Shown: positions 5,278 through 47,604 of the stretch, piece by piece
How the letters are laid out: each line of letters starts with the position of its first letter
Position numbering within the stretch: the stretch's first letter is position 1
Assembly (NCBI GenBank): GCA_032718475.1
Contig: JAUCBJ010003139.1
Coordinates: forward strand, 1-47,604
Origin: Nemertoderma westbladi
Taxonomy: Eukaryota > Animalia > Xenacoelomorpha
DNA length: 47,604 bases
Direction: 5' to 3'
The notes under the pieces: model-generated
What the model was told of the DNA's origin: nothing
Seen by the model: only the letters and a program-made list of their open reading frames with translations
The model's database searches: none
Made by a program: the position numbers and the translations under genes

Positions 5278-6208
5278 GGCTAGAGTTCCGTACGTCCCCC
5301 CATTTTTAAAATGACTTGAATTGCCTTGAAATGACTTGTATTGTCATTTAATATTATGGAATATATTTTTTCTACCTATAATATATACTATATATACAAT
5401 ATATATATATATATTATATATATTATATAGTATATATAGATAGTATATATATATATATTATTTTTAAAATGACTTGAATTGCCTTGAAATGACTTGTATT
5501 GTCATTTAATATTATGGAATATATTTTTTCTACCTATAATATATACTATATATACAATATATATATATATATTATATATATTATATAGTATATATAGATA
5601 GTATATATATATATATTATTTTTAAAATGACTTGAATTGCCTTGAAATGACTTGTATTGTCATTTAATATTATGGAATATATTTTTTCTACCTATAATAT
5701 ATACTATATATACAATATATATATATATATTATATATATTATATAGTATATATAGATAGTATATATATATATATTATTTTTAAAATGACTTGAATTGCCT
5801 TGAAATGACTTGTATTGTCATTTAATATTATGGAATATATTTTTTCTACCTATAATATATACTATATATACAATATATATATATATATTATATATATTAT
5901 ATAGTATATATAGATAGTATATATATATATATTATTTTTAAAATGACTTGAATTGCCTTGAAATGACTTGTATTGTCATTTAATATTATGGAATATATTT
6001 TTTCTACCTATAATATATACTATATATACAATATATATATATATATTATATATATTATATAGTATATATAGATAGTATATATATATACTATATATATACT
6101 ATCTATATATACTATATACTAATATTTGATTAGTGTCGCTCAAGAAACATGGTGTTATGGTATAGTAAAAAAATCTCGCAAAATGGGGGGACGTACGGAA
6201 CTGTTCCC
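5278..6208. mobile_element. Nested MITE inserted in a poly-T tract and carrying an internal tandem array
   Basis: TIRs are GGCTAGAGTTCCGTACGTCCCCCCATTT (5278-5305) and AAATGGGGGGACGTACGGAACTGTTCCC (6181-6208), with a perfect 22-bp core. T runs flank both ends. Confidence 0.8.
5308..6090. repeat. Tandem repeat, ~158-bp unit x5, containing (TA)n
   Basis: AAAATGACTTGAATTGCCTTGAAATGACTTGTATTG... recurs at about 5308, 5466, 5624, 5782 and 5940 with near-identical units. Confidence 0.95.
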
Positions 6209-27928: not shown

Positions 27929-28793
27929 ATTCCTGTTGTATGCCTAATATGTTCTCCGACAGCGATGGTAGAGCAGAGGAAAAACTATCGCATTCAATGA
28001 AATTATGAAATACGACTTCAATAGGAGGATTGTTACATTCGAATACTATCCTCAACCGAATTTATCCCCCAGTGTGATGAGGTAAACACCAGCTCAAAGA
28101 TATGTTTGCCTCAGTTGTTCTACATAAGATTTATATCCCTAATCATTAAGGGAGGTGAACAACCAGATTTATGACACATAATGGTACCAGTTGTTCACAA
28201 ACTATCCGCGTGTCCTTTCAGTCCTTGTTTCACGGTTGTGGACTTGAGGAAATTAGGAAGTGGTTGATTATCTAATCAAGAACGAGAGGGTGGAAGTTGA
28301 TATCATAAATATCAACAGAATATGACATGGACAGGAGGTGCGGACACCAATATTAGCATCCAGATGAACAGTAAGGAATGGGAGGTTTAGTATTCGTTTC
28401 CCGAAGCTCCGAGCGCGTTGGGAAGAGAAGGTGAGGAGATTTATTAGGATGAGGTATGATTCATACCACGATACCACTATGATTGGTCGATCGATGAAGG
28501 GAGTAAAGAGGAGGAAGGATATAGGGTAGTATCCATAAGACACCACAATGGACAAGTTTTCCATCACGTCATCATTCATTCTTGTCTTTTAATTGTGACA
28601 CTGATCACAATAATTACAGGAAAACGATGAAGGAAGAGAAATTTACAGCCTCCCGAAGGAGACCGCCCGCGAGCACCCGTGCCCCGGGGAAAACTATTCA
28701 CATTATGGACCCTGGACATTAACATATGTCTCTTCTCCAGTGGTTCTCCTTTATTTGTCCGCATCAACCTTCTTCCATGTTCTATCCTTCGAG

Positions 28794-29148
28794 TTAATTT
28801 CGTATAGGGTTCTCGTGTTCTATTCTCGATTTATCGTTTCGACTCCGCTGGGCATGATATTTAAATAAAACCATTTCCCTTTCGGTGTCTACATCGTCCG
28901 TATCGTGTAAATCAATAGGATGACCAGTGGTCAAGAAGTCCATATACGTACCATTACGATGCGTGTAGCTTTCTATAATCCAATTCACGCGTAAGTTGCT
29001 CCTGGGACATTGGCGGTTCGATATAACGACCATCGTCCTCTGTAGTAGTTGGATCAGCGTCGCCGCGTATCAAGCTATCGACAAACGCTTGTAAAGGTAG
29101 AGTATATCTCTCCCTGATACCAAGATCATCTTCTATTAATTCAGTCAT
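28794..29148 (-). pseudogene. BEL-B copy of accessory ORF3 (frameshifted, then divergent)
   Basis: MTELIEDDLGIRERYTLPLQAFVDSLI... and YTHRNGTYMDFLTTGHPIDLHDTDD... are nearly identical to ORF 43115-43924. Confidence 0.85.
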
Positions 29149-29639
29149 ATCTGCTATACAAGTTCACCAATATTATAATGAGTTTATATATCGTTAGGCG
29201 AGCGGGCGTCGCTGCCTATTTCTCCCTTGCCCCCGGACAGTAGGAGATTCTCAGCGCCGATGTACCGCTGTAGCTGTACTTTCGCCAACGACGTAGCCGT
29301 ACAACGACAACGACAACCGGCACAAGTCACTCCACTGTCCGTCCCAAAGGCTTAGATGTACTTCAGGTATTCCTTGGAGAGTTAGGTTATTTTTACGATT
29401 GCGACTAGCTACTGTAAACACACTTTAGCAGTAACATTCACCTATAAACTCACAAATACCACACAACTGGTCACAACTACGCACATTCGGGCCATTTGTC
29501 CGTTAGTCAATGCCTTCCAGAATGTCACTGTATTATTATGTATCCTTGGATACTAGCAGTGCGCTATTTATTCCCTATGCTATTCAATGGGACAAGCTTT
29601 CTATTGTTCGTTTAACTCAATTCTAATTCTAGCGTGGTT

Positions 29640-29653
29640 GTTGCTATGGTGAC
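29640..29653 (-). promoter_or_regulatory. RFX X-box motif (GTCACCATAGCAAC) upstream of accessory ORF3 in B
   Basis: It fits the GTNRCC-AT-RGYAAC consensus and is conserved in A at 42613. Confidence 0.5.
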
Positions 29654-30788
29654 ATTATGAAAAGCTAGCGGTAGAATTAGGGTGATTCCAATGCATACAG
29701 ATAAGGGATGTTATTTAATAGTAATTCTTTAATAGCCAATGTCCTGTTTATACATGACTTTACGAATTTTATCGGCTATTAACTATGTTTGGGAGACTTT
29801 CGTACACGCATACGCATAATAATATAAATCTCCGCTCCCTTGATCTATTAATTAATGGAATTTTGGGAATCGCGTAAAATGGCAATTTATTAAATTCATT
29901 AAAAGACATGAATTTAAATTTATTCCCTGAAATTTTATTATTTGATAACTAAATGGGCATATTTTGATTCTAGAACATGTCTAGGGACACCAGATCCTTA
30001 ATTCTAAGAAAATTGTCTCTTTAAGAATATCGGTAAATGCTACGATATCTTAATTGACTAGAATTGTTGAAGGATCTGAATTTTACAGATTTTGACTTAT
30101 TTGATTTGTAAATATTAACTAATTAATATTTGAGATGGGCACCGATTTATTCCAGAACTTGTCTGGGGACGTTAACCACTGATTCTATAATTTGTCTTTC
30201 AAGTATATCGGTGGGTGCCACGATATCTTAATCGACTAGAATTACAGATGGTCAAAGGGTTTAACAGATTTATTTTGCGTTATACGCTACTGTTAAAGAG
30301 ACATCACGCTACTATATGTATTATTTAATATACGGTATGAGAGCAATATCGCACGAAGCAATGTCAGTGTGAAGAGGCAAGTCGTTTCCAAGGTCTACCC
30401 AGAGCTTGGTTTAGCCGAGACACGAGGATCTGAACTTTGCATTCCTAATACTCTGCCTACCAATAATACTAAAATATAGTAGTGGCTTTATTGTACTTTA
30501 ATAAGTACGGACATTTCATCTTACTGTAGTTACGTATTTATAATATAATACGGACAGTAAGGAAAGAGAAAAATAATTATTTCTTCGCCGTCGCACTAAA
30601 TATAATATAAGTAATTACTTACGTAATAAACACAAATATATTGCACTATTCTACAAAATAATCGCTAAATAATATTCTACGAAATTAAATAAAACGATTA
30701 TAATAAAATTACATGGTAATACATACATAAATATAAAAATAATAAAATAATATAAAATAATAGAGTCACACGCCCACTCCGAACGATA

Positions 30789-33700
30789 TTAAGTTGGGGA
30801 GTCCCTAGATGTCGGTTGGATTAGGGAAGTGGTCGTGGGAAGAGTTTCTTGCCTTCCATAGTTTCCGGAGAGCTCTCTGTCTCTTTCCAGTAAACATAAA
30901 CGACCCACTGGGCGATTGAGCTGTTGAGTCTCAAAGACTATCCCTGGTTTCTTAAAGTTCCGCCGCATGACGACGAGCTCTACTGATCGCACCAAACCAT
31001 CGCTCGAGATATAAGTCTCGATGATACGTCCTGTTTGCCATCGCTTACGTGGGAGATCGGGGTCCACAATAAGCACCATGTCTCCAGCGCTGACGTTTTC
31101 TTGCTGCGCAAACCACTTAGTTCGAAGTTGTAGAGTGGGCAGGTAATGTTTCTCGAAATGGTCAGCGAAACGACGGGATAGCAACTGCATAAGTTGCCAG
31201 GTTCGACGGCAGTACTCGTCTCCGTCTGTGATCTCCGATCGCGGGAGCATGGCTACGGGTTTCTTCAGTAGAAAGTGCGCGGGTGTTAGCACTTCCAGGG
31301 AATCAGGATTTGAAGAGACTGGCATAAGCGGTCTTTCATTGAGATAGGCGGCGATTTCCTCCATTAACGTCCGCAATAGTTCGTCGGTGAGATAAGCGCG
31401 ACAAGGTACAATAAAGTGGAACGCAGTCTTCACGCTCCTAATCAATCTCTCCCAACTTCCTCCCCACCAAGGGGCGTCGGCGGCGTTGAAGGTCCAGCTA
31501 GACGCTGTTATCCTTAGCTGATCGTCCACCTGTCTTTTGTTCCAGTCCTTTACGTAAGCTTGAATTTCGTTGTTGGCGCCAATGAAGTTCGTTCCCTTAT
31601 CCGATCTCATCGTGTTACTGGTTCCGAAGCGAGCAATCTGTCGTCGTAAACTCAACACGAAGCTGTTGGTGGATAGATCGTTTACCATATCGAGATGAAT
31701 GGCCCTACAAGTCATACAAACGAAGATGACACACCATCTCTTGACTATAGTCCGGGCACGATATACTTCAATAGGGCCAAATAAATCCACACCGGTATTA
31801 GTAAAGGGTGGTTCATAGAAGCTTACTCTTTCCCTAGGTAATTCTGCCTCTCGCTGTGTCAAAGGCCTACTGAATGCTTTCCTACAGGGTATGCAGTTCC
31901 TAAGAACTTGGTTCAGAGCCCTACGGGGTTTATAAAAATAGTAGCGAGTTCGAATTTCGCTCAGAACTCGTTCTCTACCAGCATGATACAGTTTGCTATG
32001 AACATCCACAATTATCTTGATTTGTATATCAAGATTTCTAATGAGTATGGGAAATTTAGTGTCAAAGGATAACGGGGCGTTGGTGAGCCGACCTCCAACA
32101 CGTATTAACCTATCTATCATGGTACTAGAGAAGCGATCCCTTAAGCGCATCTGTGGATTTCTTAACAACAGGAAATACTTATCGGAATCCTCATAGCATT
32201 GTAGGAGTCTCAGCATCTGTTTGTTGGTTTCATCATGCTCCTGGTAACTGATCTTCTCCTTTAGAAACCTGTCGGATATCTTGTATTTGGGAAGATCTTT
32301 AACAACATGGACTCGTGCAGATGTTGATGGAGCATCATCACTATTGGTCTTCGTTCCGGAGTAACGATGATGAAAACATCGTTTCAAATAGGTAACAGCT
32401 TTACAGAGCCGATTCCAGGAACTGTAGTGACGTATCGCTCTCTGCAAGAGAGGTGAGAGTCCTTGCGAAATATCTGGTATTCCAGATTTCCAATCCTTGT
32501 CACGGATTTCCAAGACTTCTTTAGTCGTGGCGGTGGGTTTCTGATCCAAAGCATCCTCTCCGGAAGTAAATAATACAGATAGATCAACCGCAGGTTTAAA
32601 CAACTTCGATTTACTCGCTCGAGTTTTGGGTTTAACTTTCTCCGCTCCCTTGGCCTGTCTGATCTCTGCTGTTGTGAGATGAGGAGGCCATTCTTCTTCT
32701 TCCCTGTAGAGAAAGTCGGGTCCTCCTAACCATTCGGGAGTATTTACCAATTCTTTTGGAGTCGCTCCTCGGGACGCGATGTCTGCTGGATTAATCGTTC
32801 AGGGGCAATGTCTCCATTGGTCCATCGTCGTGCGACTAAGTATGATGGCTACCCTGTTGGTAACGAAGACGCTGAACTGACAGACTTCATTGGTTATATA
32901 CTCTAACACGAGTAAAGCGTCGGTCCAATAGACAGTTTTCTCTAATGGATAGTCAATCTGTTCGGTTACATTCCGGCCGATGGCTGTAGCGTATAGAGCC
33001 GCCTTTAACTCCGCTCGAGGAACTTTCAACTTGTTGTTGATTAATGCCTTAGAAGTAACCAAGGCGACTTTGATTCCATCCGGAGTTTCCACTCTTAGGT
33101 AGGCTACTATACCGATTCCCATATCGCTGGTGTCTCCAAACACATGGAGTTGATAGGAATACGTAGGGAGAACATGACCAAAATATGAACGGGAAATTAT
33201 AAAATCTTCGATAGCCGGCAGAGAATCTTCCCATTCCATCCACTTCTTCAATAATTCTCCCTTAAGTGGATCGTCCCATGAGTGGTTTTCAAGCCACATT
33301 TGTTGTACCAAACTACGAGCAATCAATATAACTGGGCTAATAAATCCCAATGGATCGAAATAAGTGCTCAGTATACTTAAGCAAATCCATTTGGTTCGAA
33401 CTGGATTATCTCGCTGTTTTAGTTGGAAAAACAGGATATCTCTCTCTGTGTCCCATTTCAAGCCGAGTGTCTTGGTCTCTGGCAGATCATCTTTGATCAA
33501 GTCGAGATCTTTCGCTCCTCGATCTTCCGCAGGGATCGACTCCAGAAACTCACGGGAGTTGCTGGTGAATTTCGTTAATCGAAACCCACCTCTTTTTAAG
33601 CACTCTACCGTTCCTTTAGCGACCTCAATGGCTTCCTCAACTGATGGAAGGGACTTCAGATTGTCGTCCATGTATATGTCTCTCTTGATGTTGTCGATCA

Positions 33701-33956
33701 CTTCCTTAGAGAAGGCCTCTCTGTTGTCCTCTGCAGTAGTACGCACTACCGAACAGGCATTGGAAGGGCTTGAGATTATCCCAAAGGCCTGGATGGTCAT
33801 CCAGTACTCCACCGGTTTCTGGTTGAGGTCTCCTTCGGGCCACCACAGAAATCGTAGACTATCTCGATCCCTATCTAACACCTTGACTTGTAAGAACATG
33901 CCTTCTATATCGGAGGCGAAAGCAATCGAATATTGTCTCAATCTTAAAAGAATTCT
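30789..33956 (-). pseudogene. pol: BEL-B pol: partial RT, RNase H, integrase and DUF5641-like tail
   Basis: RT motifs SDIEGMFLQV and IYMDD; RNase H motifs LHVFGD, PRAEL and YWTDA; integrase motifs H-H-C-C, GVDLFGP, SDKGTNF and GGSWERLIRSVK. There is one in-frame stop at 32799-32801. Confidence 0.92.
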
Positions 33957-37851: not shown

Positions 37852-40800
37852 TATCGGTAGAAGAGGAAAGAGCCAAGCAGATACAGGAAACGACTACACG
37901 TTTTCTTAAAGATCAAGGTAGGTATGAGATTGGTCTACCTTTCCGACGGAGAGAACCCAATTTTATAAATAACCGACCCTTGGCGGAGAAGAGAATCGCG
38001 CAACTACATCGATGCCTTACGGCAAATGCTTCAGCTAAGGAGATGTACAAGACCCAGCTGAAGAAATTCATCGACAAGGGATATGCGGAGCGAGTACCGG
38101 AAGAAACACCCATAACTGAGAGAACGTACTATTTAACACATCATTACGTTCCCAAACCCGGTAAACCCAACGAAGTCCGGGTAGTATTTGACGGCTCTGC
38201 CCTCTACATGGGCCAATCCCTTAACTCCGAGTTGTTGCCGGGACCCAACTTACTCCAATCCTTGTTGGGAATACTCTTAAGATTACGACAATATTCGATT
38301 GCTTTCGCCTCGGATATAGAAGGCATGTTCTTACAAGTTAAGGCGCTGGATAGGGATCGAGACAGCCTACGATTTCTGTGGTGGCCTGAAGGAGACCTCA
38401 ACCAGAAACCGGCATCCAGGCTTTCGGGATCATCTCGAGCCCCTCAAACGCCTGCTCAGTAGTGCGCACCACTGCTGATGACAACCGGGACGCCTTCTCT
38501 AAAGCGGTTATCGACAACATCAAACGGGATATATACATGGACAACAATTTAAAGTCCCTCCCATCGGTGGAAGACGCCATTGATGTCGCCAAGGGAACAG
38601 TAGAGTGCTTGAAAAGAGGTGGATTTCGATTAACTAAATTCACCAGTAACTCCCATGAATTTCTGGAATCGATCCCGGTAGAAGACCGAGGAGTTAAAGA
38701 TCTAGACCTTATCAAGGACGATCTTCCAGAAACCAAGACGCTTGGTTTGAAATGGGACACGGAGAGAGATATCCTGTTTTTCCAGCTAAAACAGCGAGAT
38801 AATCCAATTCGAACTAAACGGATTTGTCTAAATATCCTGAGCACTTATTTCGATCCATTGGGATTTATTAGCCCAGTTATATTGATTGCTCGGAGTTTAG
38901 TACAACAAATGTGGCTTGAAAACCACTCGTGGGACGATCCACTTAAGGGAGAACTATTAAAGATGTGGATGAAATGGGAAGATTCTCTACCATCCATCGA
39001 GAATTTTACGATTTCCCGTTCTTAATTTGGTCATGTTCTCCCCACGTATTCCTATCAACTCCATGTGTTTGGAGACGCCAGCGACATGGGAATAGGTATA
39101 GTAGCCTACCTGAGGGTTGAAACTCCGGATGGAATTAAGGTCGCCTTGGTTACCTCTAAGGCCTTGATAAACAACAAGCTGAGAGTTCCTCGAGCGGAGT
39201 TAAAAGCGGCTCTATACGCTACAGCCATCGGCCGGAATGTAACAGAACAGATCGACTATCCACTGGAGAAAACTGTCTATTGGACCGATGCTTTACTCGT
39301 GTTGGAGTATATAACCAATGAAGTCTGTCAGTTCAGCGTCTTCGTTACCAACAGAGTAGCCATTATACTTAGTCGCACGAAGATAGATCAATGGAGACAT
39401 TGCCCTGGGACGATTAATCCAGCCGACATCGCCTCCAGAGGAGCAACTCCACAAGAACTGATAGACACTCCAGACTGGTTAGGTGGACCCGACTTCCTAA
39501 GCAAGGAAGAGGATGAATGGCCTCCTCATCTTACCACGGCTGAGATTAGACAAGCCAAGGGAGCGGAGAAAGTCAAACCTAAAACCCGGGCGAGTAAATC
39601 GAAGTTATTTAAACCCGTGATAGATCTGTCTGTACTACACATTTCCGGAGATGACGCTTTGGATCCAAAATTCCCCGCCACAAATAAGTCTGTTGTGGAA
39701 ATCAGAGAGAGAGATTGGAAATCTGGAACACCAGACGTCTCGCAGGGACTCTCACCCCTCCTGCAGAGAGCGATACATCACTATAGCTCCTGGAATCGGC
39801 TCTGTAAGGCCGTTGCATATTTGAAGCGATGCTTTCATTATCACTACTCCAGAAAGAAGATCGCTAGTGATACCGCTCCACTGACATCTGCGCAGGTCCA
39901 TGTTGTTAAAGATCTTCCCAAATATAAGATATCGGACAGATTTCTGAAGGAGAAGATCAGTTACCAGGAGCATGAAGAAACCAATAAGCAGATACTGAGA
40001 CTCCTGCAATGCTATGAGGATTCCGATAAGTATTTCCTGTTGTTGAGAAATCCACAGATGCGCTTAAGGGATCGTTTCTCTAGCACAATGATAGATGGGT
40101 TAATACGCGTTGGAGGAAGACTAACTAATGCTCCATTATCCTTTGACACTAAGTTTCCCATACTCATTAGAAATCTTGAAATACAAATCAAGATGATTGT
40201 AGATGTTCACAGTAAGCTTTATCATGCTGGTAGAGAACGAGTTCTTAGCAAAATTCGAACTCGCTATTATTTTCATAAACCCCGTAGAGCTCTGAACCAA
40301 GTTCTTAGGAACTGCATACCCTGTAGGAAAGCATTCAGTAGGCCTTTAACACAGCGAGAGGCAGAATTACCTAGGGAACGAGTAAGCTTCTATGAACCAC
40401 CCTTCACAAATACCGGTGTGGATTTATTTGGCCCTATTGAAGTATATCATGCTAGGACTATAGTCAAGAGATGGTGTGTCATCTTTGTCTGTATGACTTG
40501 TAGAGCTATCCATCTCGATATGGTGAACGATCTATCTACCAACAGCTTCATACTGAGCTTACGCCGACAGATCGCTCACTTTGGAACTAGTAACACGATG
40601 AGATCTGATAAGGGAATGAACTTCATTGGTGCCAACAATGAAATCAAGGCTTACGTCAAAGATTGGAACCAAAGACAGGTGGACGATCAGCTAAGGGTAA
40701 CAGCGTCTAGCTGGACCTTCAATGCCGCCGACGCCCCTTGGTGGGGAGGAAGTTGGGAGAGATTAATCAGGAGCGTGAAGACCGCATTTCACTTTATAGT

Positions 40801-41419
40801 GCCGTGCCGCGCGTATCTCACCGACGAAATTTTGCGGACGTTAATGGAGGAAATCGCCGCCTATCTCAACGAGAGACTGCTTATGCCAGTCTCATCGAGT
40901 CCCGATTCCCTGGAAGTGCTAACACCCGCGCACTTCCTACTGAAGAAACCTGTAGCCATGCTCCCACGATCGGAAATCACGGACGGAGACGAATACTGCC
41001 GGCAAACTTGGCAACTTATGCAGTTGTTATCCCGTCGTTTCGCTGACCATTTCGAAAAACATTATCTGCCTAAGCTACAACTTCGAACTAAGTGGTTTGC
41101 GCAGCAAGAAAACGTCAGCGCCGGAGACATGGTCCTTATTGTGGAATCAGATCTTCCACGTAAGCGATGGCAGACAGGTCGTATCATCGAGACTCATATC
41201 TCAGATGATGGTTTGGTGCGATCGGTAGAACTCGTCGTCATGTGACGTAACTTTAAGAAACCTGGAATTGTGTTCGAAACACAACAACTCAATCGCCCAG
41301 TTGGTCGTTTATGTTTACTGGCGAGAGACCGAGAACTGTCCGGAAACTATGGAAGGCAAGATACTCTTCCCACGACCACCTCCCTAATCCAGCCAACATC
41401 CAGGGACTCCCCAACGTAA
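37852..41419 (+). pseudogene. pol: BEL-A pol: RT, RNase H and integrase (frameshift near 38410, stops at 39023 and 41243)
   Basis: RYEIGLPF, YYLTHHYV, VRVVFDGS, SLNSELLPGPNL, SDIEGMF, FGDASD, PGTINPADIASRG and the integrase DDE motifs. It is collinear with B pol. Confidence 0.93.
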
Positions 41420-42612
41420 TGACGTCTGGAGTGGGTGTGTGACTGTATTATTTTATATATTTTTATTATTTTTATATTTATGTATGTATTATTATGTACT
41501 TTTATTATAATCATTTTCTTTAATTTTATGTAGTAGAATGTTATTTTAGCAATTATCTAGTAGATTAGTGCAATATATATTAGTCTTATTACTTAATTAC
41601 TTATATTATATATTTAGTGCAACGGCGAGAAATAATTATTTTTCTCTTTCCTTACTGTCCGTATCATATTATAAATACGTGACTACAGTAAGATGAAATG
41701 TCCGTACTTATTAAAGTACAATAAAGCTCCTACTATACTCAAGTATTATTGGTAAGTAGAGTATTAGGAATGCAAAGTTCAGATCCTCGTGTCTCGGCTA
41801 AACCAAGCTCTGGGTAGACCTTGGAAACGACTTGCCTCTTCTCACTGACATTGCTTCTTGCAATATTGCTCTCATACCGTATATTAAATAATACATATAG
41901 TAGCGTGATGTCCCTTTAACAGTAGCGTACGACGCAAAATAAATCTGTTAAACCCTTTGACCATCTGTAATTCTAGTCGATTAAGATATCGCGGCACCCA
42001 CCGATATACTTGAAAGACAAAATTCTAGAATCAATGGTTAACGAATGTTCTGGAATAAATCGGTGCCCATCTTAAATATTAACTATTAATATTTGTAAAA
42101 TCTGTCAAACAAATACAATAGAGTAAATACTTACAAGTTAACTCTAGAAAATCTATAAATTAAAATCTGTTAAATTTTAGATCCTTTAAAATTCTAGTCG
42201 ATTAAGATATCGTAGCACTTACCAATACTCTTAAAAGGACAAATTTCCTAGAATCAAGGATCACAGTCCCCAGACATGCTCTGGAATAAAATTGTGCTTA
42301 TTCCAACATTGAATAATAAAATTTACGGGAATAAATTTAAATTCATCTTTTTTAATGAATTTGATAAATTGTCATTTTTATACAATTTATAACATTCCCA
42401 AAATTCCAATAATTAATAGATCATGGGAGCGGAGATTCACCCTATTAAGTGTATTAGTGTGCGAGAATCTCCAATATATAGTCAATAGCTGATAAAAATT
42501 CATAAAATCATGTATAAAGGGGAATATTGACAATTAAAGAATTACTATTAAATAGCATCCCAGATCTGTATGCATGAGAATTACCCTAATTCTACTGCTA
42601 GCTTTCCATAAT

Positions 42613-42626
42613 GTCGCCATAGCAAC
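42613..42626 (+). promoter_or_regulatory. RFX X-box motif (GTCGCCATAGCAAC) ~490 nt upstream of accessory ORF3 in A
   Basis: It fits the X-box consensus and is conserved in B. Confidence 0.5.
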
Positions 42627-43114
42627 AACCACGTGAGAATTAGAAGCGAGTTAAAAGAACAATAGAAAGCTTGCCCCATTGAATAGCATAAGGAATAAAT
42701 AGCACACTGCTAGTATCCAAGGATACATAATAATAACGTGGCATTCTGGAAGGCACTTGACTAACGGACAAATGGCCCGAATGTGTACAATTTGTGACAG
42801 TTGTGTGGAATTTGTGCGTTTATAGGTGAATGTTACTACTAAAGTGTGTTTACAGTAGCTAGTCGCAGTTGTGAAAGTAGCCCTACCTCTGCAGTAAGAA
42901 CCTGAAGTAAATCTAAGCCCTTGGGACGGACAGTGGAGTGACTCGCGCTGGTTATCGTTGTCGTTGTGTAGCTACTACATTGGCGAAAAACACAGTGACG
43001 ACGGTACATCGGCGCTGAGGATCTTGCGCTGTCCGGGGGCCGTAAGGGGTAGGCAGCGACGCCCGCTAGCCTAATTATAACTAATTATAATATTGATAAA
43101 CTCATATAGCAGCT

Positions 43115-43924
43115 ATGACTGAGTTGATAGAAGATGATCTTGGTATCAGGGAGCGATATACTCTACCGTTACAAGCGTTTGTTGATAGCTTAATATGCGG
43201 CGACGCTAGTCCAACTACTACGGAGGACGATGGTCGTTATATCGAACCGCCAATGTCCCAGGAGCAACTCACGCGTGAATTGGACTATAGAAAATTCACC
43301 GCTCACTACACGCATCGTAATGGTACGTATATGGACTTCTTAACTACTGGCCATCCTATCGATTTACACGATACGGACGATGTAGACACCGAAAGGGAAA
43401 TGGTTTTATTTAAATATCATACTCAGCGGAGTCGGAACGATAAACAGAGAATCGCACACGAGAATTCTATTCGAAACCGACTCGAAAGAGAAGACGTTGA
43501 AGAGCCGGATAAACGCAGCGACTTCAATGATTATCTGGAATTCTTGAGAGAAACATATCTCAATATTGCCAGTCAACAGAATCTAGAAACTCGATATCCT
43601 CAAGGTATACATCATGACGCCATGATAGAACTCAAACGGCTCTATTTCACTATGATGTATCTTACCGCCGATCGACAGCTACATGTCGTCCCAGATAGCT
43701 TCGAACAGATGGAGGAATATTGTAAAACTGGAGAACGATCACCCGCATTTCCCCTGCAGGACGTGCGTCTTTGGTATTACTGTGATGAATGCCCTAGACC
43801 CAACCAGCAAACGGAAAGACATAAACATCCGCGGAGACGTTGCGCTAAACACAGTTTTACTCGTTATACCTATGGGAGTTTCAAGCGAAACTTGTTCGAC
43901 GACGTATCACCTACGCTCGCTTGA
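43115..43924 (+). CDS. BEL-A accessory ORF3, 269 aa, unknown function, possible C/H metal site (CDEC...H...C..H)
   Basis: Intact ORF whose start and first ~120 codons are conserved in B. It is preceded by the AG acceptor-like ATAGCAG. Confidence 0.7.
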   Translation: MTELIEDDLGIRERYTLPLQAFVDSLICGDASPTTTEDDGRYIEPPMSQEQLTRELDYRKFTAHYTHRNGTYMDFLTTGHPIDLHDTDDVDTEREMVLFKYHTQRSRNDKQRIAHENSIRNRLEREDVEEPDKRSDFNDYLEFLRETYLNIASQQNLETRYPQGIHHDAMIELKRLYFTMMYLTADRQLHVVPDSFEQMEEYCKTGERSPAFPLQDVRLWYYCDECPRPNQQTERHKHPRRRCAKHSFTRYTYGSFKRNLFDDVSPTLA

Positions 43925-44218
43925 CTCAAACGATCCTTGAATAAACCCATGATCAGAGTTCCGGAATACTCGGTCAGACCTCCTCATTCCTTAGTGAGAC
44001 CTCAAACGCTTGATCCTAATAGTATAACGGATCCCCCTGAACTGTACTCACTATTTAAAGATCTTGTGCTACCCGACAATTAATCAGTGGCACTCCGGTA
44101 GTGGGCTCGCTAGATATTCGCCCATCCTACCTAGCCGGATTGGGACGCGGGCATCTAATATCGCCGTTCAACCCGTACAATCATCCCGGTTTAACCCCGA
44201 TACAACCCGTCACCGAAG

Positions 44219-44992
44219 TTGAGGAGAGCGTTGTACGAAACGCGTAGACGCTATTCGGCAGAAGATCGGAAAAGGAACTTACGATTGTTTAGAGAAACGC
44301 AAATTGCAGCAACAAGTCCAAGCGGTGAAGGAATTGGCCTTACCCCAGTTCGATCGAGAAATCCAGAATCTCGAGGAAGACATCGAACTTGGACGAACCT
44401 ATTCTCTACAAGAGTTCTTAGACGAACGTTTACAACGACAAGCGGAGGAAAATCAGCTCGAGGAGAAGCACATCGAAATGGATGAGAGAGAAGAAGCAGC
44501 TTTAGCCCAGCCAGAAGCTCAAATCCTTATGACTGATCTCTATTCCAAAACCATCATTCACCCCTCGATGGTTCCCCATTTCGGAGACAAACTCTTCGCC
44601 ACGGTACAACCTAAGCTAAACTCTTCGCCACATATCAACCTAAGATCTCGAGATCTTATCGCTGACGCTCCTATGTTACAGCGTCCGCCAATCGAGGCTG
44701 CTCGTGTCGACGGTATACTCGTTGAACCTCCGGACAATCGAGCGGATCGTGTCCGTCGTATGGTACACGAGGTCAACATACACACTAGACCTTTACCGAA
44801 CTCGTTTTATGGGATCAAAGATCACCCTTATTATGTCAATCTAACTCAATATTACATGGTAAAACCGGAAGATCCTACACATAATCTAAGGTTTCTACCA
44901 CTAATAAATCCTCTCGATCTTGTCGAACTCGAACAACTGCAGAAACATCTGGATCAGTTAGTGAAAGTAAACTCATTCCGAAAACCCTACAA
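44219..44992 (+). CDS. BEL-A further accessory coding region, unknown function, truncated at the LINE junction
   Basis: ORFs 44219-44485 and 44304-45074 overlap, with a charged coiled-coil-like segment. The residues after about KPYN are antisense LINE sequence. Confidence 0.55.
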
Positions 44993-45068
44993 TGTCTTAA
45001 TGCTCTTTGCAGCAGCCTTCACTTCTGCAAAGGAGATATCACCAATGGGAATATCTGGGAGTACAGAC

Positions 45069-46571
45069 TCATGACACTTTTACTTCTATAAAGTTATCAG
45101 GCAATACCCTGTCATTATTGAGGAGCTTTACAAAGTGGGCCTTCCAACCATTGAGGCGATCGGCTGGTGATTCAGCCTTAACCTTGGTGGTTGGTTGGCC
45201 AGCAAGCAAGTTGATCGATCTCCATGCCTGGGATGATTGCCTGCTGTCGTCAGCATCATTGATGGCATCAACCTGTTGGTTTATTAGCTCCTGTAATTTA
45301 ACAGAGTACTGCCTGTTCAGGGACCTAGATGCAGCCTTAACTGCATTCTTGGCCGCTGTAGTCTGTTTGAGTCGGGACTCTTTCTGCGCCTTGTAGAGGT
45401 CATTTCGGCACTTCTGAATTTTGTTGTCAATCCAGGGGGCCCGTTTCCTGTTTCGAGGGTATACAGGAACTGTTTCTGCAGCTGCTAACTTAACTGCCTC
45501 TGTGAAGGCAGTATAGCCCTCACAGTGATCTGCCGCCTCAGAGGCAAGAACCTCATACCTGTTGCTCAGCTGTAGTGTGAAGCTGGATCTCACACTTGGC
45601 TGTTGCAACAGAGAGGACCAGTCATGCCGCGGCAAGGCAGATTTCGTTGTTCTGCTAGCACGCAGACTAAGTCTTACCTTGGCCACAATAAGGCGGTGAT
45701 CACTGGAGAAGGGTCGTAGTGTAAATGCATTACAGTCTTGTATAGAGCTCCTGTATTTCCTACGAAACAGGATATGGTCTATCTGGGACTTGTGACCACT
45801 GGGTCCACTATGAGTCCATAGCTTTCCAGTTCGCTTCTTGAACTGGGTTCCAGCCGAAAACAATCCATTTCCAGAGATAAAATCCTGAAGATGGACGGAA
45901 TTTCGGTTAACACTATTGCTATAGACCCAGGGCGATGTAGGTGATTGATGCAGACTTGCATTAAAGTCTCCCAGGGATGTTAAGAATGCATGCTGATCCA
46001 CTCCATCAGTAGCTGCTTGTAGATTCTGGTAGAAATTTTCCACCTCCTCTACAGGGGCAACACTAGTTGGAGAGTAGCACACAATCAGAACCACCTTAGG
46101 AAACTTCTTAGCCAGTCTTCCAGAACATGAGAAGTGGCAACGGATGATGCGGTTAGAGATTTGGTCTATTTTGTCCAATGCTGCATGTGCAGTTGGATTC
46201 ATCAATAGACCAATTCCACCATTGCCACTATCATCTGCTGAAGCGAGGGCGAGTCGCCAACCGCCCCCCATGTCCTTAATCAGAACCTCATCAGTCTGTC
46301 CAGTCTGCATTCGGTGCTCTTGAACACCCACTGCACTAAGAGAAAGCTTATCTGCCAAGGCAGTCAGCTCACCTTGTCGCATTGGGGACCCGAGTGTTAG
46401 GGTGTTTACTGAGGCTAGTCTAGTGACTTGCCTCAGATTCACCAATGGCTTTGTTGGTCGGGGTGGAACATGAGAGTAGCCTCCAACTCCAGAATCCCTC
46501 TCCCCCTCACAATCTGGCCTCCCTGGTGACCCAGGGTTTGGGCCAGAAAGGTCATCAGGAAAGGGGCTCAA
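45069..46571 (-). CDS. LINE ORF: apurinic/apyrimidinic-like endonuclease and linker
   Basis: 500-aa ORF with a full set of EEP/APE catalytic motifs. Confidence 0.88.
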   Translation of the reverse strand: MSPFPDDLSGPNPGSPGRPDCEGERDSGVGGYSHVPPRPTKPLVNLRQVTRLASVNTLTLGSPMRQGELTALADKLSLSAVGVQEHRMQTGQTDEVLIKDMGGGWRLALASADDSGNGGIGLLMNPTAHAALDKIDQISNRIIRCHFSCSGRLAKKFPKVVLIVCYSPTSVAPVEEVENFYQNLQAATDGVDQHAFLTSLGDFNASLHQSPTSPWVYSNSVNRNSVHLQDFISGNGLFSAGTQFKKRTGKLWTHSGPSGHKSQIDHILFRRKYRSSIQDCNAFTLRPFSSDHRLIVAKVRLSLRASRTTKSALPRHDWSSLLQQPSVRSSFTLQLSNRYEVLASEAADHCEGYTAFTEAVKLAAAETVPVYPRNRKRAPWIDNKIQKCRNDLYKAQKESRLKQTTAAKNAVKAASRSLNRQYSVKLQELINQQVDAINDADDSRQSSQAWRSINLLAGQPTTKVKAESPADRLNGWKAHFVKLLNNDRVLPDNFIEVKVS

Positions 46572-46796
46572 AGATATTGTTTGCCGCTCTCTCTCCAGTA
46601 GGGGGTGAGACAGGCAGCCGGTCAGGAGATAACTGACGCCTGTGAGGCCGATTGTGTCCAGTCATTCCACTGGCCTCTAGTGGCTGGACCTCCGCATTAC
46701 TAATGTAATCCATAGTGGGGGTTAGGGGGTGCTTTTTTGCCGAGTCAGCTCTCGGGGCAAATACCACACCCTGGTTTGCCATTCCACAGGGTGGGT

Positions 46797-47027
46797 GTCG
46801 CAGTGGGGTCAGATATGAGGCCCATCACCCATATCTACTCTGGCGCACATGACCCACCATTGGCTGTGCAGCTCATCTGCTGGGTCATGCCCTGTACCCC
46901 TGCTGCCAGGTGCAGGTCGCAGTGAAGTGCACTCAGAGTGGACATGAGAACACTCTACTCTTGACCAGCCATTGGTAGATCACCATCTGCCTGGCCAGGC
47001 CATATACCCCTGCAGCCAAGTATATGG
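46797..47027 (-). ncRNA. Two tandem copies of a three-hairpin structured RNA module in the LINE 5' UTR
   Basis: Stem sequences differ between the copies but still pair, while loops and linkers (TGGCWGCAGGG, GCAGATG..CCAATGG, AGAGT, CACTGCGAC) are conserved. Confidence 0.6.
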
Positions 47028-47604
47028 GTCCTTAATCCAGGACCAAGGGCGTCCTTATCCCAGAACGAAGGGGGTCCTAGTTACAGGACCAGATTTGCCC
47101 TAGTAAGAGGGTCTATGCAGCTACAGGTGGCACCTCCTTTATGCTGCATGGAGGTGGCAAGTTTTCTTGATCAATCAGTCAATGACCTAGAATACCTGAC
47201 CTGACCTAATTACATTACAGTATTATATTATATTATAATTATAATATAATTATATTACAGTATTAGCTCAACCTAACTGCCTAAGACTCTAACATAAATT
47301 CTGAAATTGCTATGACCAGCTGAGTGCTGCCTACCACTTTGTGGAAGCCGCCAACCACTTTAGTTATGTTGTATGTAGTTCATGTATAGTTTATGTATAG
47401 TTTATGCACTGTAGTTCTGTAGTTTGGAATGCGAATGGTAGATGTGTTAAGTACCGGTATTTTCATTAGATTCTTCAAGATTGTAACAGTGCTTAGATCC
47501 ATTCGTCATAAGCCACCGCTACTGAAACCTCCAGGGCCAAGACTCAATTTCAGACTGCAATTTATATGCCCAATCGGTCAGTTCCAGTTGTTAGCAGTTC
47601 CTGC

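Follow-up and report, generated by a model that had tools for sequence, protein, structure and literature searches.

At the 5′ end of a LINE in the window, as we call the whole 47,604-nucleotide stretch of DNA that was analysed, lies a fold with the letters and pairing pattern of the class 1a xrRNAs of flaviviruses, and further down the same leader stand two copies of a three-hairpin module whose loop and tail covary. We favour, as an evenly balanced judgement, a joint reading in which the LINE begins with a class 1a xrRNA fold and carries the modules as non-catalytic elements of cap-independent translation.

The LINE and the xrRNA-like fold at its 5′ end

A non-LTR retrotransposon (LINE) of the RTE clade is represented by its 5′ half at 45069..47207 on the minus strand, on which all features of the LINE described below lie. 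It was recognised by a Pfam domain, by its similarity to the protein P0001 and by its abundance in contigs. An APE-type endonuclease is encoded in the frame 46661-45069 (Pfam Exo_endo_phos, E 2e-7), and this frame is 48% identical to P0001, a full-length EN-RT protein of 1057 residues with an RT domain. The similarity stops at 45075, corresponding to residue 536 of P0001, and no RT follows within the window; the window copy breaks off past the endonuclease and linker region. The endonuclease and its closest RT-bearing relatives fit the single APE-RT ORF of the RTE type, the window copy ending before the RT. The clade name, for this LINE and its relatives, is a provisional assignment. In public runs of organism A, 8425 contigs of set X1 align on 46400-47400, and from these thousands of contigs the LINE is an abundant family in that organism; the summed contig depth of the family is not its copy number. 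Sets X1 and X2 represent one sample; no run listed as containing the stretch is identified as RNA, and X6 is one contig from a run that is possibly RNA.

Other elements share the window. The sequence that comes after the LINE breaks off (43100-45074, plus strand) contains two open frames, 274 and 283 residues long, neither of which has a Pfam match. Inverted Pao/BEL-type LTR retrotransposon copies at 28771-33955 and 38269-43503, 86% alike over 5.3 kb, carry peptidase A17, an integrase zinc finger and DUF5641, and there are tandem arrays at 919-1625 and 5302-6087, the first built of a 27/54-base unit and lying within an open frame of 516 residues, the second consisting of identical copies of a 158-base unit.

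The ORF of the LINE (45069..46782), delimited from sequence and contig variants, has in-frame AUGs at 46782 and 46713. Near 46575 the window copy has one base more than most family copies, which puts its AUGs in another frame than its endonuclease (46661-45069); in most copies, one base shorter there, both AUGs are in step with the endonuclease frame. Folding and sequence place two hairpins just before and around the start of the ORF (46736..46793), downstream of the second module, and the first of them holds AUG 46782 in its loop, 17 bases past the pseudoknot of that module. The word around this AUG is similar to words in published RTE 5′ parts (supplement of PMC5786205). Upstream of it, the leader contains 11 further AUGs.

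The family's first 92 bases (47115..47206) are predicted to form the class 1a xrRNA-like fold, identified by a descriptor match, a feature table and an alignment. We drew the features of the class from the available text of PMC12081666, PMC7749634, PMC7527734 and PMC13161572, and those that can be read from letters are all found here. Two G-C pairs make PK1 (47206-47205 with 47129-47130; 1-3 pairs in the class). P1 joins 47203-47199 to 47128-47124 at a three-way junction by five Watson-Crick pairs, a number that defines class 1a (PMC7749634). P2, long at 41 bases (47198-47158), is separated from P3 by an unpaired C at 47157, which is likewise a mark of the class (PMC12081666). P3 has seven pairs (47156-47150 with 47137-47131; 4-8 in the class) and is capped by L3 (47149-47138), and the L3-S4 pseudoknot PK2 adds seven more (47149-47143 with 47121-47115). 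The letters of the base triple are present, with U 47204 placed for a presumed contact with A 47155-U 47132. The closing C-G pair of P2 and the U after P1 are also there. In a position-by-position feature table, the window fold has all contacts common to eight flavivirus sites, and its departures from the viral core are compensating pairs only: the fifth P1 pair changes from C-G to U-A, and the outer PK1 pair, A-U or U-A in seven of the eight viral sites, is G-C. Most family copies are without 8 of the 41 P2 bases, the window having 8 extra bases at 47171.

The genomic copies of the family begin close to where the fold begins. Loose contig ends and a fall in depth put their 5′ boundary at 47203..47209, with ends at 47203 (3 contigs), 47206 (7), 47207 (11, 10 and 13) and 47209 (8); contigs loose at 47175 continue with the letters of 47184-47205 and then diverge. 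Short of the 5′ end, X1 depth drops from about 0.8M to 0.19M, for which the 8 extra bases of the window at 47171 may account, as may partial truncation of copies. In published work Xrn1 stops either 2 or 4 bases ahead of PK1, or some 5 bases ahead of P1 (PMC12081666, PMC13161572, PMC7749634). Placed on the window, these distances give 47208-47210, next to the boundary, although DNA contigs cannot show an RNA end.

A strict class 1a descriptor, which finds three of eight viral sites and two weak others in 325 kb, has a single match in the 47.6-kb window (score 19), against 24 matches with a best score of 13 in 80 Mb of random sequence; a relaxed descriptor scored at best 17 in 60 Mb of random sequence. 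Both descriptors were composed after the sequences had been seen, so these random-sequence nulls overstate significance. The eight viral sites came from a pattern scan of viral contigs that returned 43 loci, five of them flavivirus 3′ ends carrying the sites. A covariance model built from these sites only (R1; P2 of 7-11 bases in training, pseudoknots unscored) ranked the window fold, with its P2 of 41 bases, seventh of 11 matches at 6.8 bits (E 6.6). Rfam gave no match at 47095-47215, yet a true viral xrRNA itself scores just 29.7 bits. The three-way junction, taken without its pseudoknots, comes to -26.8 kcal/mol and the best nested fold to -32.1 kcal/mol; PK2 taken as a duplex adds -9.6 kcal/mol, loop costs uncounted.

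The same viral model matched a second locus, L125, at positions 157-230 (19.4 bits, E 6e-4 by a rough calibration, with 20 of the 23 metagenome loci searched). The L125 fold (160-233) follows an AT-rich flank and precedes an RTE ORF 26% identical to the query; none of the contacts is lost in it, although three more pairs have changed and PK2 has six pairs, and its 5′ boundary is known from one copy. Its relaxed-descriptor score of 16 was attained twice in 60 Mb of random sequence; with the outer PK1 pair and the U as additional requirements, it was attained 0 times. In the endonuclease tree L125 sits on another branch than the window LINE, beside RTEs with twister-P1-like 5′ ends. The twister-P1-like ends of L136 and L137 score 49-51 bits in Rfam, below the gathering score of 67. 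Among 81 further loci and 20 genomes (at most 150 candidates scored in each), no more xrRNA-like folds were found at LINE 5′ ends. Two side observations concern these loci: twister-P1-like ends lie upstream of the ORF in L122, L123, L124, L126, L127, L128, L136, L137 and L141 (Rfam was run on L123, L136 and L137), and SECIS-like Rfam matches near the ORF start, at 46498-46563 in the window (minus strand) and at L125:356-422, reach 19.5 and 28.4 bits against a gathering score of 35 and are probably chance.

Duplicated modules in the leader

The first-pass annotation had described a duplicated structured RNA module in the 5′ UTR of a LINE, and both the setting and the parts it listed hold good: three hairpins, an AGAGT linker and a tail are present in each copy. 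Module 1 (46916..47027), defined by sequence, folding and a two-row alignment, consists of hairpin 1 at 47027-47000 with its loop at 47017-47010, hairpin 2 at 46997-46962 with a fixed internal motif, hairpin 3 at 46956-46935, and a tail at 46922-46916 that pairs with the loop of hairpin 1. Module 2 (46797..46916), for which contig variants were also available, has the corresponding parts at 46916-46891 (loop 46907-46900), 46887-46850, 46836-46811 and 46803-46797. Hairpin 1 had been described as too short and extends to 9-10 pairs around an 8-base loop; hairpin 2 holds a fixed irregular internal helix composed of G.G, C-G and a purine-pyrimidine pair, then G.A and A.A. Between the xrRNA-like fold and module 1, at 47027-47090, we also observed three 18-base hairpins in tandem with a spacing of 23 bases (47090-47073, 47067-47050 and 47044-47027; repeat family D3, folding), each of 6-7 pairs, the middle one with compensating stem changes.

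The two modules are paired by the repeat finder (79% over 38 bases, spacing 110) and by blastn inside the window (E 0.002). In the two-row alignment, 53 of the 55 cells of a 28-pair structure are standard pairs, with three double changes, and sliding the partners leaves 26-46% paired; with no more than two rows to draw on, a shuffle control did not reach significance (68/500). Hairpin 3 lacks common alignment columns and, read from its base, gives three more double changes. Folding z-scores are modest for the whole modules (-1.7 and -1.8) and strong for hairpin 2 alone (-3.0 and -4.0). When the whole UTR is folded without pseudoknots, P3, hairpin 2 of either module and hairpin 3 of module 2 are strong in the ensemble, whereas P1, hairpin 1 of either module and hairpin 3 of module 1 have a pair probability near 0, and the minimum-energy nested fold joins the end of the xrRNA to hairpin 1 of module 1. 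The helices absent from the nested fold reflect either a blind spot of the pseudoknot-free program or a real alternative state.

Family copies carry the signal further. The pseudoknot between loop and tail had been proposed blind, and in other copies position 46900, the last loop base of module 2, and position 46803, its first tail base, change together from G-C to A-U. The changed letters occur in 68%/71% (46900/46803) of X1, 54%/44% of X2, 71%/59% of X3 and 0%/0% of X5, and the sole X6 contig carries both; this compensation is one evolutionary event. Sixteen listed positions are changed in at least 20 X1 contigs, nine of them in stems and seven unpaired; eight of the nine stem positions keep pairing, the exception being 46938, and changes to G-U come easily. 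Covariation among homologous LINE copies is found at 46900/46803, and together with the two-row comparison it supports the earlier view that changed stems with retained loops point to selection on structure.

Relatives of the modules were sought in 23 metagenome loci, 80 genome loci and one viral locus, the genome loci being LINE contigs in prokaryote bins. As an aside, L187-L266 are eukaryote-type LINEs inside many prokaryote genome bins, likely host contamination. The clearest relative is an RTE 37% identical to P0001, L198, with a module-like stretch in its 5′ UTR. It was first found at L198:262-421 (E 0.16) with a two-row model, R2, in which hairpins 2 and 3 are mis-registered; L194 matched the same mis-registered model at E 0.007. 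At L198:266-420 the same loop stands on a different 8-pair stem, with one extra hairpin, an inner motif that has G-C in place of A-U, and the same tail. A module descriptor written afterwards returned, from the window and 267 loci, the two modules, one mis-started reading of module 1 and L198, and gave 0 matches in 80 Mb of random sequence. The L190-type family, seen in four copies, has a similar loop and tail, its inner motif not being in module order. If the variable fourth base of the loop bulges, an extended loop-tail pairing becomes possible; it contains C-G at three of the sites, and L190-type elements have A-U there. In an endonuclease tree of 26 rows, the window LINE, L198 and L190 fall in one branch (support 91/96, not starred), and the distance from tail to AUG is 17 or 87 bases in the window, 71 in L198 and 59 in L190. 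On the side we noted that the RTE 5′ UTRs at L190:4205-4400 and in L274, L282, L287 and L293 have the module loop and tail near their apparent 5′ end, that UTRs of this type offer further possible long-range pairings, and that L282 is without about 60 bases between loop and tail. L198:110-165, upstream of its module, has by eye an HDV-like layout for which the strict HDV descriptor and Rfam gave no confirmation.

Other searches returned no further module. The closest relative with UTR sequence, L121, had no module match in its 336 UTR bases, and two look-alike words in it were discarded, as they lie inside an inverted RT fragment (bases 1-123). Comparison of the UTR with L121-L143 by blastn and nhmmer gave nothing significant; none of 120 loci from a module pattern scan of viral contigs passed the module descriptor; and protein-seeded scans of viral contigs and a first genome scan yielded no module relative. 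A pattern search of 20 genomes pointed to five places, one of which was L198 again, and no hairpin 1 loop with a tail was found at the other four.

Proposed function of the leader

A 2011 paper reportedly described HDV-like ribozymes in RTEs. RTEs are described as having no promoters and as relying on 5′ ribozymes for their release from host transcripts (PMC6765202, PMC8501958, PMC5786205). We propose that in the window LINE the xrRNA-like fold fills the role that HDV-like and twister ribozymes have in other RTEs. The fold at 47115-47206, read from its letters, would very probably resist Xrn1/Xrn2 and so likely fix and protect the 5′ terminus of its RNA. We think it probable that the LINE is transcribed inside a host transcript whose decay halts at the fold, and that the uncapped product of this trimming, which would begin near 47208, is the template for insertion. 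With no cap and 11 AUGs before the ORF, internal ribosome entry would be needed or at least helpful, and the modules might, with prospects that we see as about equal either way, recruit a ribosome or an initiation factor at an internal site. Docking of the 8-base loop on the tail through four pairs, probably seven with one base bulged, would present the fixed internal motif of hairpin 2. More tentatively, and somewhat short of an even chance, this LINE lineage may have swapped its 5′ ribozyme for an xrRNA matured by Xrn1/Xrn2 and gained new modules that translate the uncapped product.

A translation role, putative though likely, is our preferred reading of the modules; protein binding is its main rival. 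A fixed irregular internal helix within variable stems is typical of a protein site, and the module stems have just that. The xrRNA reading could accordingly be right and the modules be binding sites of the element's own protein, used in RNP assembly, template choice or the second-strand step, which we regard as unlikely without being negligible. The words of the internal motif occur in swapped order in L291 and recur in RTE and SINE 5′ parts (supplement of PMC5786205); since SINEs encode no protein, a binding role fits them better than a translation role. The R2 protein, moreover, binds a 5′ UTR pseudoknot (PMC6765202). What argues against protein binding is that in three families the module keeps its position, 59-87 bases ahead of the main AUG.

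The first-pass annotation had offered a ribozyme as one of two functions, a translation element being the other. The selected structure and the pseudoknot behind that proposal were borne out by covariation, but the ribozyme itself is weakened by even coverage and by the want of a known catalytic core that fits. Core words of hammerhead, twister and pistol ribozymes have 0 matches in the modules. The twister word pattern agrees with Table 1 of PMC8501958, and twister-P1, which Rfam finds in L136 and L137, was not found in the modules. A strict HDV descriptor (nested double pseudoknot, pyrimidine-rich L3 of 7-8 bases, P1.1 and a catalytic C in J4/2), run without a positive control on a true HDV-like ribozyme, had 0 matches in 46690-47230, and a loose one had 203 unspecific fits. 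Hammerhead words at 0, the strict HDV descriptor at 0 and the lack of an Rfam match agree with the annotation, which had fitted the module to neither consensus.

A new class of self-cleaving ribozyme, perhaps slow or regulated and acting as the 5′ device of L190-type elements, is a doubtful alternative, even though the compact pseudoknot has a probably bulged, variable base flanked by fixed ones, 5′ ribozymes are frequent in RTEs and the L190-type loop lies close to the apparent 5′ end. Cutting within the UTR would strip the xrRNA and module 1 from each new copy, yet X1 depth is level over 46756-47155 (0.62-0.97M), the modules being covered as evenly as the rest of the UTR. Family contigs end about 180 bases upstream of the modules, and the loose ends among those listed form no cluster at the modules except at an indel. 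A ribozyme is unlikely, since copies continue across both modules and none of the known cores fits them. Two further identities were tried and rejected: a class 2 xrRNA, suggested by shared short words, whose features (a 4-pair P3 of fixed C/G pattern, a long PK1 and an A between P2 and P3) were not found at 46797-47027, and a captured flavivirus 3′ UTR making up the whole leader, for which the dumbbell model gave no match and the module has RTE relatives.

Slightly more doubtful still is an internal promoter, whereby the 5′ boundary would be a transcription start, the fold would only slow decay after decapping, and the modules would act as DNA, in the form of repeats to which factors bind, or aid re-initiation. 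A start site would yield an identical boundary, and PMC5786205 offers the speculation that transcription regulators bind to the conserved 5′ parts of RTEs; however, compensated stems with fixed loops point to RNA shape, and RTEs are described as lacking promoters (PMC6765202).

That the stems arose without selection, as side effects of a repeat's duplication and of template switching, is very improbable: reverse transcription can homogenise hairpin arms, and several helices are unpredicted in the fold of the whole UTR, but template switching leaves unexplained a compensating change between bases 97 apart, the distant copy L198 and the full set of xrRNA contacts in two lineages.

Comparison with known systems

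The leader has likenesses to several known systems. Its start region recalls HCV-type IRESs, in which an AUG stands in a hairpin loop soon after a pseudoknot, as it does after module 2; L198 and L190 have no such near AUG. Flavivirus dumbbells (RF00525) are likewise duplicated elements with a pseudoknot from loop to downstream sequence, following an xrRNA as the modules do in the LINE leader, but the RF00525 model, which scores 63-88 bits on viral loci, finds nothing on the modules. A counterpart among retroelements is a conserved domain of RTEs and RTE-derived SINE bodies (PMC5786205), which also lies mid-5′ UTR, sometimes in two copies, and has some short words in common with the modules. 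It is known as sequence only, the words 'hairpin' and 'stem-loop' occurring 0 times in the available text of that paper, and the Ceph-domain sequence shown in its supplement has no likeness to the modules by eye, one module word being absent there. No RTE module was found among the matches listed in a search of the literature on RTE UTR structure. Rfam returned only chance matches at E up to 5 or 10, and by this comparison the modules belong to an RNA family of RTE leaders that is not yet catalogued.

For the 5′ fold, the closest system is the class 1a xrRNA in the 3′ UTR of mosquito-borne flaviviruses, as presented in PMC12081666, PMC7749634 and PMC13161572, with nearly identical core letters. 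Common to both are the three-way junction, a P1 of five pairs, the unpaired C, the letters of the U-A-U triple, a PK1 of two pairs, the L3-S4 pseudoknot and the U after P1. Unlike the viral folds, that of the window heads a retrotransposon of a cellular genome, in a single copy, and differs in its P2 of 41 bases, its G-C outer PK1 pair, its U-A fifth P1 pair and the coding RNA downstream. In position and apparent task, the freeing of an RNA from a host transcript, the fold resembles the 5′ ribozymes of non-LTR elements, which are HDV-like in R2, RTE and L1Tc and twister variants in Perere-3 (PMC6765202, PMC8501958); it differs in having no catalytic core, as its end would come from a stalled host nuclease. 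Class 3 xrRNAs of plant viruses that head coding subgenomic RNAs, as far as described in PMC12397905 and PMC7527734, provide a precedent for the maturation of a translated, uncapped RNA by nuclease stalling, as proposed here; their fold is another one, they are viral, and their translation is ascribed to cap-independent enhancers.

As of 2025, according to the available text of PMC12081666, no analogous xrRNA structure had been identified in cellular RNAs, and our search of largely open-access literature for xrRNAs with retrotransposons or transposons returned, among the papers listed, engineering uses and reviews and no natural retrotransposon xrRNA. If our reading is true, an abundant LINE that begins exactly with a class 1a fold would supply such a cellular case. 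It would add to promoters and ribozymes a third route to the 5′ end of a retrotransposon, and it would pose a question as to the direction of the fold's transfer between viruses and retroelements. On the more tentative reading of a swapped ribozyme, cellular genomes would naturally contain class 1a xrRNAs, with at least two deep RTE branches carrying them, and these would have been exchanged with the viral ones or be ancestral to them. The modules would offer a direct handle on the translation of uncapped LINE RNAs. RTE UTRs are under engineering for gene insertion (PMC13708176), and natural parts for 5′ protection and translation would be useful for gene insertion based on RTEs.
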